Shown in pieces: positions 24,983 through 30,967 of a stretch of 64,000 bases of DNA. Source of the stretch: Escherichia coli (GTDB taxonomy: Bacteria; Pseudomonadota; Gammaproteobacteria; Enterobacterales; Enterobacteriaceae); NCBI RefSeq assembly GCF_050920415.1, contig NZ_CP169309.1; one strand, written 5' to 3'. Under the pieces are notes generated by a model. It was not told the origin of the DNA. It saw only the letters and a list, made by a program, of their open reading frames with translations, and searched no databases. A program made the translations under genes and the position numbers. The first letter of the stretch is position 1. Every line of letters starts with the position of its first letter.

Positions 24983-25014
24983 GACTTCAGCCTCTCCCTT
25001 ACGCTATTGCAACA

Positions 25015-25944
25015 TTATTTAAAAAGCGTTTTTGTAAAAGCCAATTCCGGGTTAATGGCGATCAGTTTATCCAGCAATGGATAAAACCACTCCGGGGCAT
25101 TCCAGCGGCTGAAATCGGGGCGATGATCAATTGCCAGCGGTGTTTTTAACAGCGGATGATCGATTTCTGGGGTGGAAAGACCATGCTCTGCCCGAAAATT
25201 TTTTACTGCCTGATATTCAAACGGCCAGAGCAGCAATTCTCGGTCTTCAATTTCATAACCATTTCTGGCATATTCGTCTTCAGTTGTTTCGGTACGTGCC
25301 GACCATTTAAGATGGTTATCGCAAAGTGCTGTCAGCCACTCCTTCAGCAAGACTTCATTCTGTGTGTAGAGCGCTTCTTTTACAAACTGGGTATAAAAAC
25401 GATCAGAGGGGATACCAAATGTCTCCCAGTTGATAGTTTGTTTCTGTTCGCTGGCAAGCATTTCAATTGCCAGCACAATCATTTTTTGCGGTTTAAGCTT
25501 TTTAGCTTTTGCTACGTCAAAGTTTTTCAAACCTTGGGTGAAATAAGGATAATAAAGACGGGCGATATCAAGACGATGCGTTGCCATAAATGATAGGAGT
25601 GGAATTCCTTTCTTATAGAAAAAACCATCTAAGAAACCTGTGGTTTTAGAATATTGAATGGCTTCACAAAACAAATTCATGGATTTACATGCAACATAAT
25701 CACATATTAACGAGTTATCCTCTTTGTTTTTGTAAAATAAATACCACGCATATAGATAACAAAAGGATGAAGCTGCATCATAGAATATATATTGTGAATC
25801 AGATATTTCCTCGCCATTCGAATTGCCCACTTCTAATAAAGCATCAGAAATATCCTCATTGGAAATGTTTATATATCTGTTAACATCCATGTTAAAGGAA
25901 CTTTCATTAACAAAATAAGAATGAATTTCATTGTATCTTTTCAA
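25015..25944 (-). CDS. hypothetical cytoplasmic protein, 309 aa (immunity candidate; AT-rich)
   Basis: Intact ORF, TTG start as called (alternative ATG 54 nt downstream); markedly AT-rich coding sequence; no recognisable motif. Confidence 0.5.
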   Translation of the reverse strand: MKRYNEIHSYFVNESSFNMDVNRYINISNEDISDALLEVGNSNGEEISDSQYIFYDAASSFCYLYAWYLFYKNKEDNSLICDYVACKSMNLFCEAIQYSKTTGFLDGFFYKKGIPLLSFMATHRLDIARLYYPYFTQGLKNFDVAKAKKLKPQKMIVLAIEMLASEQKQTINWETFGIPSDRFYTQFVKEALYTQNEVLLKEWLTALCDNHLKWSARTETTEDEYARNGYEIEDRELLLWPFEYQAVKNFRAEHGLSTPEIDHPLLKTPLAIDHRPDFSRWNAPEWFYPLLDKLIAINPELAFTKTLFK

Positions 25945-25946
25945 TT

Positions 25947-28306: not shown

Positions 28307-28322
28307 TTACACTCCTTTTTTG

Positions 28323-28898
28323 CTATATAAAGACCAGACTATTTTTTTCTTTTGGGTTTTCACAAATAATATTTGTCAGTCCGGTGGTAAATTCTGCAAA
28401 ATCGTCCGCAGGTAAAAAAGGAATAAAATCCCGCACTGTTTCAGGCGCATAATACCGGAACATGACCCACATTTTATTTACCTCATCATAAAGCTGATTA
28501 AATTTTCGCAGATGATGAGTCAGTTCATTCAGGGAAAGATAGCTGCGGATAAAAATACCCCAGCCATTACCCCGGCTGCTTCTTATCAGCCATTCCGTAA
28601 ATGGCTTATCTTTTTCCAGCCGGACGATATAAGGCGCATAAAGAGAAAACTGTTCTCCCAGTTCACCTTTCCATAAGCATGACCATTCCGTCTCATACGC
28701 ATCAAGTAAAACGGCAATATCCGGTTTTTTTAATGCATCAATGATGGCATAAGTGTGGCAGTCAGTTATTTTACTGGCAGATATCACTGATATATCATCA
28801 GATGCTGTTTTTTCCGGCATACTGAAAAGAAAGCCTGTCAGCGCATCCTGGTATAATTGTGTATCTTCCGGCACATCAATAATTTTCAGTCGGCTCAT
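28323..28898 (-). CDS. DUF4123-family T6SS effector adaptor/chaperone (Tap/Tec-like)
   Basis: 191-aa ORF whose ATG overlaps the vgrG stop (ATGA); size and position immediately 3' of vgrG match the DUF4123 adaptor pattern; family assignment is from context and general resemblance, not a search. Confidence 0.55.
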   Translation of the reverse strand: MSRLKIIDVPEDTQLYQDALTGFLFSMPEKTASDDISVISASKITDCHTYAIIDALKKPDIAVLLDAYETEWSCLWKGELGEQFSLYAPYIVRLEKDKPFTEWLIRSSRGNGWGIFIRSYLSLNELTHHLRKFNQLYDEVNKMWVMFRYYAPETVRDFIPFLPADDFAEFTTGLTNIICENPKEKNSLVFI

Positions 28899-30967
28899 TT
28901 TTTCCCGTCCTCTTCTTCGGCCTGTTTTGCTTTCGCACAGATTTCGCAGAACGGTTTGCCCTCATTCACCATCGCCGTCAGTGCTTCCACCTGATCCACG
29001 CCGCCGCCCCGGATATCCATTGCTGGCGTCAGGATCTGAAGTTTTTTTGCCTTTATCGTAACGCCACCACCATCAATGGTCAGACTGCCGCCAGGCCCGG
29101 CGATCACCAGTCGCTCTCCGGCGTGCATAATGTATTTATTGGTCTGCGAAAAAATCTTCGTATTTACCGTTTCATCCTTCACGCCCTGGATCACCACCGT
29201 TTTATTGCCGCCAATATCGTCCAGGGAATCAGCAAATATTTTCTTTCTTTCCGAACTGTTCACCACCAGCGTCCGGTTTCTGTCCACTTCGATTTCCTGA
29301 TCCTGAACCACCCGGACAACGGAGTTCCTGCCGATGGTTTCATAGTGATCCCGGCCCACATCTGTTTTCTTGTCCTGACCAATGGTTTCCTGCTGGTCAA
29401 CGCCCACGCTTTTGGCGCGGTTATTACCGATGGTATGGCTTTCATCGTGCAGAATTTCCGTCACATGGTCTTTCTGCGCGTGCATATAGACCTGTTCCCG
29501 GTTTGTGGCGTCTTCAAAACGCAGTTCATTAAAACCCTCGCCCCGGTAGGTCTGCGTGCGGATAGTGGTCTGCGTTTTCGTTTCCGGTAAATCCCCCGGC
29601 GAGCGATTTTTCTCATGGTAGGTGCGCCCCATGATGATCGGCTGGTCAGGATCACCGTTTAAAAAATCGACAATCACCTCCTGACCCACACGCGGAATGG
29701 CAAGATGACCAAATCCCGTCCCGGCCCATGGCTGTGATACTCTGATCCAGCAGGAACTGTTCTCATCCTGTTTGTGATAACGATCCCACAAAAATTTCAC
29801 CCGCACCCGGCCATGCTCGTCGCAGAAGATTTCCTCACCTTCCGGCCCGGTGACGACCGCTGGTTGTGGGCCATCCACTTTCGGCTTAGGCTGCGGCGTG
29901 GGACGCCAGGTTTTATCCGCTGGTATGGCCTGAAACGTATTCACCAGCGTGGTTCCCTGGCCCCGGCTTCCGGGAACGGCCTGCGGCTGCTCGCCGTGCA
30001 GTTCGCTGGCGATCACCTGCCATTCCCGGTTCAGATCGTCAGCCGGATGATCGGTCAGCGTAAAGCGCGTACCGGGCCACAGTTTTGGCGAGTTGCTGCA
30101 TCCCCTGGCGATCTCCGCATCATTGCGCCAGCCTTCCATCTGGTAACGGGTAAAATCTCTGCCATGCTGTTCGTCCTTAAAACGCCCCGGATAGTCCATC
30201 ACCTCATACTGGTTGCGCTGGCCGTTAAGACTGGCGGCATTATGGCGAAAACGCCCCGGCCAGTCAGGGTATTTGAAGGTGTAGTCTTTGCTGATGACAT
30301 ACGCCGGGCGTATCTGCGCACTGTGGCGGAACTGGCTGATATACTCCGTTTCCGTGGCGCGGGGTTCCGGGTTAAACGGAAGGGGGAAGGCTTCCGGCAG
30401 GTAGTAAACTTTATCGCAGAACACCAGCGGCTGATCCTTCCCTTCACGGGCGTGCTCTTCGTAAAAAAATATCCCTTCTTCCGCCAGCAGGCGGCAGAGA
30501 AAACCAAAATCAGTTTCACCGTACTGCACGCAGAACTCCCGCGCCGGATGAGGCTCGCCCAGCAGATAAGCCGTCTGCATCACCCGGTTGTCATCCAGCA
30601 GGTGCTTAATAATGGACTGAATATCCTGCTGCTGAAAATGGCGAAAATTTTCCCGCAGGCTGCTGCGCCAGAAAGGAGGATGCACCCGCAGGTAGTAGTT
30701 CATTTTATGACCGTCATATTCCCCGCGCTCAATCCTGGCTACCAGCCCGGTGATATGGCGCTGTGCGGTATTGTTTTGCCACAGGGTAAGCGTGGCATTC
30801 AGTTCCAGCAGTTCCGTAGATTTAAGGTGGATAGTGTCGCTGATGAGATGAAGATCGAGGGTGAATAATGCGGAGTAATGCTGGGTAAGATGAAAGTTTA
30901 CGACGGCAAAGGTTTCTGTATCAAAATCGCCGATATCAACGGTAAAACGGGTTCCTGTCCGGGGCAT
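28895..30967 (-). CDS. vgrG: T6SS spike protein VgrG
   Basis: 690 aa with hallmark VgrG segments: FYEEHAREGKDQ, VRVKFLWDR, WIRVSQPWAGTGFGHLAIPRVGQEVIVDFLNGDPDQPIIMGRTYH (gp27/gp5-like). Confidence 0.9.
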   Translation of the reverse strand: MPRTGTRFTVDIGDFDTETFAVVNFHLTQHYSALFTLDLHLISDTIHLKSTELLELNATLTLWQNNTAQRHITGLVARIERGEYDGHKMNYYLRVHPPFWRSSLRENFRHFQQQDIQSIIKHLLDDNRVMQTAYLLGEPHPAREFCVQYGETDFGFLCRLLAEEGIFFYEEHAREGKDQPLVFCDKVYYLPEAFPLPFNPEPRATETEYISQFRHSAQIRPAYVISKDYTFKYPDWPGRFRHNAASLNGQRNQYEVMDYPGRFKDEQHGRDFTRYQMEGWRNDAEIARGCSNSPKLWPGTRFTLTDHPADDLNREWQVIASELHGEQPQAVPGSRGQGTTLVNTFQAIPADKTWRPTPQPKPKVDGPQPAVVTGPEGEEIFCDEHGRVRVKFLWDRYHKQDENSSCWIRVSQPWAGTGFGHLAIPRVGQEVIVDFLNGDPDQPIIMGRTYHEKNRSPGDLPETKTQTTIRTQTYRGEGFNELRFEDATNREQVYMHAQKDHVTEILHDESHTIGNNRAKSVGVDQQETIGQDKKTDVGRDHYETIGRNSVVRVVQDQEIEVDRNRTLVVNSSERKKIFADSLDDIGGNKTVVIQGVKDETVNTKIFSQTNKYIMHAGERLVIAGPGGSLTIDGGGVTIKAKKLQILTPAMDIRGGGVDQVEALTAMVNEGKPFCEICAKAKQAEEEDGKK

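Follow-up and report, generated by a model that had tools for sequence, protein, structure and literature searches.

The closest described counterparts of the locus analyzed here are the auxiliary type VI secretion system (T6SS) modules of Vibrio cholerae (vgrG-1/tap-1/tseL/immunity; Unterweger et al. 2014, 2015), in which the effector gene follows vgrG and a gene for a DUF4123 adaptor. The effector modules of V. cholerae have a GC content unlike that of their surroundings and are exchanged by recombination, for which a site in the DUF4123 gene tap-1 has been proposed (PMC4557670). We analyzed a 64-kb stretch of the chromosome of Escherichia coli MFDS1022581 (64,000 nucleotides, hereafter the window), in which a compact minus-strand operon with the gene order vgrG-DUF4123-E1-E2-I-X-PAAR contains a block of low GC content at positions 25000–28900. 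Here, E1, E2, I, and X denote genes, and their products, of 444, 341, 309, and 252 amino acid residues, respectively. This block is very probably the exchangeable cargo of an orphan T6SS spike module that is located on a tRNA-Lys island. Exchangeable T6SS effector modules are already established; it is the cargo proteins, the anchors, and the carrier that differ at this locus.

Three E. coli alleles of the module were compared: allele A, which is the allele of the window, allele B (L083–L086), and allele C (L094, which is GCA_051576645.1, and L095). They represent different modules in one slot with conserved flanks, within one species. The likeness to V. cholerae is as follows: the effector genes follow vgrG and the DUF4123 adaptor gene, the GC content of the effector and immunity genes deviates, strains of one species differ in the same slot, and recombination at a conserved sequence is taken to bring about the exchange. 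The operon also has three features of a VgrG-linked auxiliary module, namely a VgrG with gp27/gp5-like domains, an adjoining DUF4123 gene, and a PAAR gene in the same operon. The position of the exchange is different. For V. cholerae, a conserved segment of 99 bp located centrally in tap-1 has been proposed as the site; here, the left break between alleles A and C comprises the vgrG stop codon and the first five DUF4123 codons, so that the adaptor is exchanged in its entirety. A site inside the DUF4123 gene of the tap-1 core type was not found at this locus, and the adaptor of allele B is wholly conserved. The right anchor lies inside the PAAR-linked gene X, a feature that does not come from the V. 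cholerae descriptions used for the comparison. Further differences are that the cargo proteins of the two systems are unrelated and that the present module is carried by a tRNA-Lys island with tssF and tssG.

A first-pass annotation, made by eye from the sequence, had described 25000–28900 as a low-GC cassette between vgrG and PAAR genes of typical GC content, and had proposed sliding-window GC and tetranucleotide analyses to check it. Both analyses revealed a composition that is not uniform across the operon. The GC content of this segment is 0.405, compared to a mean of 0.504 for the window, and it is the lowest among 1,202 sliding 3.9-kb windows (z −4.2, relative to non-overlapping windows); its tetranucleotide distance from non-island DNA corresponds to z = 8.0. 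The minimum of the trough, 0.29, was found at 25600–25999, where A/T-rich runs (near 25.86–25.98 kb) had already been pointed out. All of the genes named in the first-pass annotation were found, on the minus strand. The GC content and the GC content at third codon positions (GC3) are 0.540 and 0.619 for vgrG, 0.401 and 0.370 for the DUF4123 gene, 0.431 and 0.330 for E1, 0.400 and 0.313 for E2, 0.377 and 0.358 for I (the lowest GC content of the operon), and 0.50 and 0.46 for the PAAR gene. Gene X is intermediate (0.469 and 0.451) and is itself split into a 5′ part of 360 nucleotides with a GC content of 0.445 and a 3′ part of 400 nucleotides with 0.491. The cargo genes, at 0.38–0.43, thus differ in GC content from the flanking vgrG (0.54) and PAAR (0.50) genes.

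Relative to 35 non-island open reading frames (ORFs) in the window, the GC3 of the four cargo genes is shifted by z −3.1 to −3.9, compared to +0.7 for vgrG. The GC deficit of these genes is greatest at third codon positions, and it therefore reflects codon usage and not amino acid composition alone. The possibility that the trough arose by chance or as a by-product of amino acid composition can for practical purposes be dismissed. In its favor, the cargo genes also have slightly reduced GC contents at first and second codon positions, but the drop is largest in GC3 (0.31–0.37 vs 0.62 in vgrG), the deviations in GC and tetranucleotide composition are those given above, and the pattern is repeated in 8 independent loci. 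Maximum likelihood places the left-hand GC change point of the trough at 28904, practically at the vgrG stop codon, and on the right side the GC content climbs gradually from ~25500 to 24600. Outside the island, a single ORF of the window has a GC3 as low as the T6SS cargo: a 244-residue WGR-domain ORF at 6579–7313 on the minus strand (0.343).

The replacement of the whole cassette, as proposed in the first-pass annotation, was borne out by allele C. In this allele of the same island, the frame is nearly identical to that of the window at the amino acid level (VgrG 98.4% over all 690 residues, PAAR 97%, TssG 96.6%), yet the cassette between vgrG and the PAAR gene is only 24–66% identical: 44% for the DUF4123 protein, 35% for E1 (444 residues in the window and 411 in allele C), 24% for E2 (341/335), 38% for I (309/312), and 66% for X (252/251). 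The A/C junctions were located by local alignments, with identity determined in 50-nucleotide windows; this also provided the proposed alignment of the vgrG 3′ end and the adaptor region across strains. On the left side, the nucleotide identity is 92–100% through the vgrG stop codon and five DUF4123 codons (to ~28884, within a breakpoint interval of 28870–28900) and then falls to 30–60%. The junction sequence is GAAGAAGAGGACGGGAAAAAATGAGCCGACTGAA. On the right side, the identity is 40–70% on the cassette side of ~24620 and 96–100% beyond it; this breakpoint (24600–24650) is inside X, at about codon 121. Because of these sharp breaks, the replaced block can be delimited to 28884–24620, which is almost exactly the low-GC block, and its left end matches the GC step (28904). 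The cassette of allele C is likewise of low GC content (0.35–0.40). By this alignment, X is chimeric: its N-terminal ~120 residues travel with the cassette and its C-terminal ~130 residues with PAAR. The assignment of the 252-residue gene to the frame in the first-pass annotation thus holds for the 3′ part, from about codon 121, whereas the 5′ part belongs to the cassette. The island of allele C adjoins nadA-pnuC, a neighborhood that we take, from the E. coli gene order, to be another tRNA-Lys site.

Allele B is located at the same lysV site as the allele of the window and differs from it in a smaller core inside the cassette. The frame is again conserved, with nucleotide identities of 98% and 96.7% for the core and the C-terminal part of vgrG, 99.5% for the DUF4123 gene, and 97% for both X and the PAAR gene, compared to 86% for E1, 80.5% for E2, and 77% for I. 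The divergence is concentrated in two hotspots. The first (27300–28000, in the middle of E1) is 64–82% identical, vs 99.5–100% directly upstream, and the second (25500–26710, from about residue 88 of E2 to about the middle of I) is 50–80% identical. The number of synonymous substitutions per synonymous site (dS) is 0.38–0.70 for E1, E2, and I, vs 0.016–0.126 for the neighboring genes, and the ratio of nonsynonymous to synonymous substitutions (dN/dS) is 0.22–0.27. The I and E2 proteins are 73% and 78% identical, with dS of 0.70 and 0.60 and dN/dS of 0.23–0.27. We read this pattern as the signature of imported divergent alleles, and not of local positive selection alone.

Toxin/immunity pairs are expected to evolve by arms races, and E2 and I are the most divergent of the genes and diverge together. 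An origin of the cassette divergence in place by such an arms race, without recombination, is nevertheless highly improbable. The dN/dS values are well under 1, and the dS values of the core genes exceed by far those of the adjacent genes; the boundaries are abrupt at the scale of 50-nucleotide windows; and the A/B mosaic includes segments that are more alike than the island backbone, such as the DUF4123 gene. One of these segments, 28099–28898 (the DUF4123 gene with the start of E1, up to codon ~70), is 99.5–100% identical between alleles A and B with dS 0.016, compared to 96–98% and dS 0.09–0.13 for the rest of the island. An additional exchange of this segment, of very recent date, is thereby implied.

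Among more distant relatives, the boundary of the mobile unit is found within vgrG itself. The vgrG gene (28895–30967, minus strand) encodes a protein with the Pfam domains Phage_GPD (2e-75), Phage_base_V (1e-15), and Gp5_trimer_C (5e-28). Codons 1–500 (29468–30967) correspond to the gp27/gp5 spike core, and codons 501–690 (28895–29467; GC 0.513, GC3 0.59) to a C-terminal region with the conserved tail VDQVEALTAMVNEGKPFCEICAKAK. Among 80 VgrG-related loci, collected with one genome per species, the closest VgrG cores belong to Citrobacter sp., Escherichia sp. MOD1, and an Enterobacteriaceae isolate (L003, L004, and L006). Residues 1–500 of these proteins are 60–94% identical to those of the window, vs only 12–23% for residues 501–690. 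In Escherichia sp. MOD1 and the Enterobacteriaceae isolate, vgrG is followed by unrelated cargo, also of low GC content, and then by a small PAAR-sized ORF. This cargo consists of two genes (for proteins of about 110 and 400–450 residues) with 31–37% GC, at 12115–13678 of L006 and 10407–12063 of L004. The PAAR-sized ORF of L006 encodes a PAAR protein 83% identical to that of the window, and the one of L004 had no match to the window PAAR. Nothing was found in Pfam and NCBIfam scans of the alternative cargo of L004, L006, and L094.

Conversely, residues 501–690 of VgrG are 69–86% identical in every carrier of the DUF4123-E1-E2-I-X-PAAR cargo, whereas the cores of these proteins are much more divergent. 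The carriers are Klebsiella spallanzanii, an Enterobacteriaceae metagenome-assembled genome, Pectobacterium parmentieri, Serratia silvae, Budvicia aquatica, and a metagenome contig, and the gene order of the module is kept in 6 or more genera. Megablast matches to other E. coli vgrG genes end at 29464. According to these comparisons, the unit that is mobile over long distances starts within vgrG at about codon 500 (~29467). There is no GC step at this older boundary. The 3′ end of vgrG is 70–78% conserved at the nucleotide level between genera up to the stop/start overlap, and 45–50% thereafter, which makes it a plausible anchor for homologous recombination.

A composition that is intrinsic to the cargo genes and maintained there, by AT-biased mutation under weak codon selection or by selection such as nucleoid-protein silencing, would account for the low GC content without any scar of transfer. 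We consider this explanation possible but on balance doubtful. It agrees with the same GC trough in 8 of 8 orthologous modules, whatever the host. The GC content of the I gene is 0.33–0.39 in all loci, compared to 42–52% in the flanking DNA outside the module, and the contrast is sharpest in K. spallanzanii (vgrG 0.60, DUF4123 0.37, PAAR 0.61). In Proteus vulgaris, an 18-kb array (L101; CP090064.1, 898739–916658) has 29% GC beside housekeeping genes with 38% GC. The co-inherited residues 501–690 of VgrG, moreover, are encoded with a GC3 of 0.59, vs 0.31–0.37 for the cargo genes. Across modules, the GC3 of the frame (the C-terminal part of vgrG, X, and the PAAR gene) follows that of the VgrG core (r 0.79–0.94), whereas no such relation is seen for the GC3 of the DUF4123 gene, E1, and E2 (r −0.5 to 0); with only five modules in both correlations, this difference in tracking is suggestive at best. 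A maintained composition does not account, however, for the sharp homology breaks at the GC step or for the 5–40-fold synonymous excess that is confined to the cassette. It could contribute alongside cassette exchange but cannot take its place. Judged by these modules, AT-richness is a property of the cargo class in every examined host, and it neither dates the transfer nor names the donor.

The array of P. vulgaris contains at least five I-family genes, two X-family genes, five PAAR genes, an E2 fragment, and repeated ORFs of ~262, 308, and 317 residues, and it looks like a repository of orphan genes for immunity and PAAR proteins. Sequential displacement of modules yields arrays of orphan immunity genes, as described by Kirchberger et al. 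(2017; PMC5361080). Such arrays resemble those of several relatives of the window module, which keep extra I or X-PAAR genes downstream: Pectobacterium (I2 and I3), the metagenome contig (I2-X2-PAAR2), Budvicia, and P. vulgaris. The window differs from this pattern in having one I, one X, and one PAAR gene and no orphan copies; a clean replacement of the previous cassette seems to have taken place in E. coli.

The roles of the cargo proteins were predicted from the position of their genes, from a gene order shared between genera, and from sequence features. The operon has ATGA stop/start overlaps at three junctions (vgrG/DUF4123, E1/E2, and X/PAAR). The DUF4123 gene (28323–28898, minus strand) encodes a Tap/Tec-type protein of 191 residues (PF13503, E 1.2e-20), with a weak NCBIfam match to Tla1, the chaperone of Tle1, and we infer that it is the adaptor. 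DUF4123 adaptors tether effectors to a helix-turn-helix at the C-terminus of the cognate VgrG, which is bound by their N-terminal lobe (Colautti et al. 2024; PMC11582642). The present locus shares with that loading system a DUF4123 gene directly after vgrG and a conserved VgrG tail that co-segregates with the cargo family. Its DUF4123 proteins are, in contrast, short (~190 residues), and their docking is predicted from sequence. The tail VDQVEALTAMVNEGKPFCEICAKAK is presumed, by analogy, to be the docking site, and its linkage to the cargo family fits this role. In alleles A and C, DUF4123 proteins that are 44% identical are paired with a 99% identical VgrG tail. Two other described systems were considered and set aside: the DUF4123 system of strain UMN026 (PMC11114119) is a different locus, and the domains that define the Tvp accessory proteins (PMC13373197), DUF2169 and DUF4150, were detected by Pfam in none of the proteins of the operon.

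Searches with E1, E2, I, and X returned zero matches above noise in Pfam and NCBIfam; E1, E2, and X had no match in the PDB in single-sequence or profile searches, and a literature search by the RefSeq protein accessions of VgrG, E1, E2, I, and X found no paper. E1 (26972–28306, minus strand; 443 residues in RefSeq) belongs to a family of 7 clusters among 5.8 billion proteins. It has a hydrophobic hairpin at residues ~300–345 (hydropathy peak 1.6–2.3), located at the same position in all nine of the orthologues compared, a conserved C-terminal third, and a glycine-rich C-terminus. On these features, we propose that E1 is a membrane-inserting effector or carrier that is loaded by the adaptor. 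The idea that E1 and E2 are a single gene split by a frameshift was rejected, as every orthologue retains the two overlapping genes and the search of representative proteins returned no homologue of fusion length.

E2 (25947–26972, minus strand) had 22 matches among 1.84 billion representatives. In 21 sequences with identities down to ~20%, Glu134 is invariant, Asp184, Lys206, and Gln229 are present in ≥90%, and position 204 is either Glu or Asp. The resulting pattern, E134, G182-x-D184, (E/D)204-x-K206, and Q229, comprises candidate catalytic residues and contains the PD-(D/E)xK motif, i.e., D...(D/E)xK with an upstream E. A first AlphaFold2 model built with 8 sequences was too poor to be used (predicted local distance difference test score of 59) and was discarded. 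The model built with 21 sequences has a predicted alpha-beta-beta-beta-alpha-beta core, with weak structural matches to Hjc/Hje/YraN and UL24. A Foldseek search of this model against the PDB gave no match below E 0.06, and hhalign of the E2 profile with Pyrococcus furiosus Hjc (1gef) aligned 13 columns around the ExK motif with E 0.12. Membership in a curated nuclease profile was not found either, since no Pfam family is common to the 21 members and the PDB profile search was empty. With its motif conserved and its fold evidence weak, E2 is likely a PD-(D/E)xK nuclease toxin.

Nucleases of the PD-(D/E)xK type among T6SS effectors include TseT/Tox-REase-5 and the VRR-Nuc effectors. E2 shares with the PoNe-type toxins (PMC6688995) the E...D...(E/D)xK...Q pattern, a predicted core, and a candidate cytoplasmic immunity protein encoded next. 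It differs from PD-(D/E)xK toxins in matching no Pfam nuclease family, in being a separate polypeptide that is not fused as a C-terminal domain to a PAAR, Rhs, or MIX protein, and in being translationally coupled to a hydrophobic partner.

Gene I (25015–25944, minus strand) starts with TTG; its first ATG would give a protein of 291 residues. Prediction found neither a signal peptide nor a transmembrane segment in the protein. I co-diverges with E2 between alleles A and B, extra copies are found downstream in four relatives (Budvicia, Pectobacterium, the metagenome contig, and Proteus), and the I family, with >142 clusters, is far broader than those of E1, E2, or X. For these reasons, namely solubility, co-divergence, extra copies, and a much wider family, I is probably a cytoplasmic immunity protein to E2. 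Gene X (24224–24982, minus strand; 237 residues in RefSeq, with the start at 24937) always lies directly upstream of the PAAR gene, which it overlaps by ATGA. The X family has only 8 clusters, and its members have a conserved C-terminal motif, AQYYDGxRCFDDPLRPRWYG. X may be a PAAR-side accessory protein or a second immunity protein, to E1. The PAAR gene (23928–24227, minus strand) encodes a tip protein of 99 residues (PF05488, PAAR_motif, E 7e-20).

Two arrangements of these proteins can be envisaged, each of them tentative. In the first, the cargo would be a two-polypeptide T6SS effector, in which the adaptor-loaded hairpin protein E1 carries the separately encoded E2, E2 comes from a new, very small PD-(D/E)xK clade, and the chimeric X links the cassette to PAAR; we do not favor it above other arrangements. 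As a corollary, AT-richness would be a trait that the cassette maintains, as opposed to a trace of its transfer; the GC content of the cassette is decoupled from that of the co-inherited VgrG C-terminus and is lower than that of each examined host. In the second, which also seems to us somewhat unlikely, two toxins would be paired with two immunity proteins: E1 as a membrane-depolarizing or pore-forming toxin with X as its immunity protein, and E2 as an accessory or second effector with I. The conserved hydrophobic hairpin and the glycine-rich C-terminus of E1 would suit a toxin of this kind, and membrane-targeting VgrG-linked effectors have precedent (PMC13373197). X is conserved between alleles A and B like the C-terminus of E1, in allele C the N-terminal half of X differs along with E1, and X copies lie beside I copies in the orphan arrays. 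For X, however, neither a transmembrane segment nor a signal peptide is predicted, whereas immunity proteins against toxins that act on membranes usually have such features, and its constant position abutting the PAAR gene with overlapping codons suggests a structural partnership.

The operon sits in a 16-kb island (~23767–39726) that is integrated at a tRNA-Lys. The vgrG and PAAR genes, which the first-pass annotation had described as GC-typical backbone, do have a typical GC content but, being part of this island, do not belong to the E. coli backbone. The integration site is tRNA-Lys(UUU), lysV (39727–39802, minus strand; ARAGORN). Adjoining it is a P4-type integrase gene (38250–39461, minus strand; annotation and Pfam), followed by a second integrase-domain gene (36220–37104, plus strand; Integrase_1/Phage_int_SAM_2 in Pfam). 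The baseplate genes tssF and tssG (31406–34281, plus strand; RefSeq annotation and Pfam) are divergent from vgrG, and the island also encodes a helix-turn-helix gene. At the far end, direct repeats revealed an attR-like partial copy of the tRNA-Lys 3′ end (23749–23766), which marks the island boundary, and a second copy at 23593–23610. The tRNA target, the 3′-end repeat, the adjoining tyrosine integrase, and a patchy distribution are thus all present, as in tRNA-integrated islands. The tRNA-Lys target, the far-end partial tRNA repeat, and the integrase adjoining the tRNA are shared with P4-integrase tRNA islands, whereas the payload here is a partial T6SS set (tssF, tssG, vgrG, cargo, and PAAR) with no full secretion cluster.

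Among 5,426 complete E. coli genomes compared by megablast, one contains the island; the remaining complete genomes match only 267 bases adjoining the tRNA-Lys, and in nearly all of them homology resumes at 23500–23766. The exact VgrG and PAAR proteins were found in 88 and 137 index blocks of draft assemblies, respectively, always in the same context. As these exact look-ups gave one context each, the other alleles were reached only via homologues of E1 and X. The tssF/G genes of the island are ~66% identical at the nucleotide level to the resident E. coli tssF/G, and the host record contains two tssF/G places and three further vgrG-like places. Judged from the second tssF/G and the further vgrG-like loci, a T6SS apparatus to fire the spike is probably available in the host.

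Several other features of the island and its surroundings were observed. A 61-nucleotide unit, consisting of a terminator-like hairpin and the first 18 nucleotides of the tRNA-Lys 3′ end, is present as a tandem duplicate at 23550–23610 and 23706–23766, 156 nucleotides apart, and resembles att-site scars at the far end of the island; RefSeq labels the stretch that separates the two copies 'RtT sRNA'. The divergent intergenic region between vgrG and tssF (30968–31405) has 30% GC and shows the lowest conservation of all non-cargo stretches when island alleles A and B are compared, with 79.7% identity vs 96–98% for the flanking genes. A scan of promoters and terminators was uninformative, with 16 promoter-like sites vs 15.6 expected. 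The segment 37001–38000, just downstream of the second integrase-domain gene, has ~42% GC, and the identity of alleles A and B drops to 85–89% there. In allele C (L094), tssF is broken into two ORFs. An IS2 element (IS3 family) is inserted between yfeH and yfeR (~16911–18139), and in the allele B strains, the xapABR-yfeN genes are missing between the island and yfeR.

Cassette exchange is carried by the composition step, the three alleles with sharp breakpoints, the excess synonymous divergence, and the linkage of the VgrG C-terminus to the cargo. The protein functions and the loading order that we attach to it are predictions. A VgrG trimer capped by PAAR would form the spike, the DUF4123 adaptor would dock on the C-terminal tail of VgrG and load E1, and E1 would be co-produced with E2 via their overlapping stop and start codons. 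E2, the likely toxin, would act as a PD-(D/E)xK-type nuclease in the target cytoplasm, and I would be its cytoplasmic immunity protein; X would be a PAAR-linked protein with a cassette-type N-terminal half and a frame-type C-terminal half. The 3′ end of vgrG with the overlapping DUF4123 start would serve as one anchor and the 3′ half of X with the PAAR gene as the other, and homologous recombination at both would swap the AT-rich cassette between them. Smaller exchanges within the cassette would swap the core comprising the middle of E1, E2, and I. Over greater distance, the unit from about codon 500 of vgrG onward would join different VgrG cores.

Four points weigh against this explanation. 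E1, E2, I, and X lack any sequence match in Pfam, NCBIfam, or the PDB. The co-travelling C-terminal region of VgrG has a normal GC content, so that composition does not simply mirror history. Compared to every examined host, the cargo is AT-rich, and part of the deficit may be maintained in place and not imported. Finally, the one piece of evidence for a possible firing of the spike by the host is the second tssF/G locus.

For genome scans, the locus gives reason for caution: the GC step hit a real junction and missed the older one inside vgrG, and GC content alone neither finds all breakpoints nor dates them. The exchange is nested at three depths, at which the effector/immunity core, the cassette as a whole, or the cassette along with the VgrG C-terminus is replaced. 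Alleles A, B, and C are natural sets for the study of kin discrimination, of the specificity between DUF4123 adaptors and VgrG tails, and of four uncharacterized protein families. The locus represents a clean, base-pair-resolved E. coli case of T6SS re-arming, in which a spike and tip frame is combined with interchangeable toxin/immunity cassettes.

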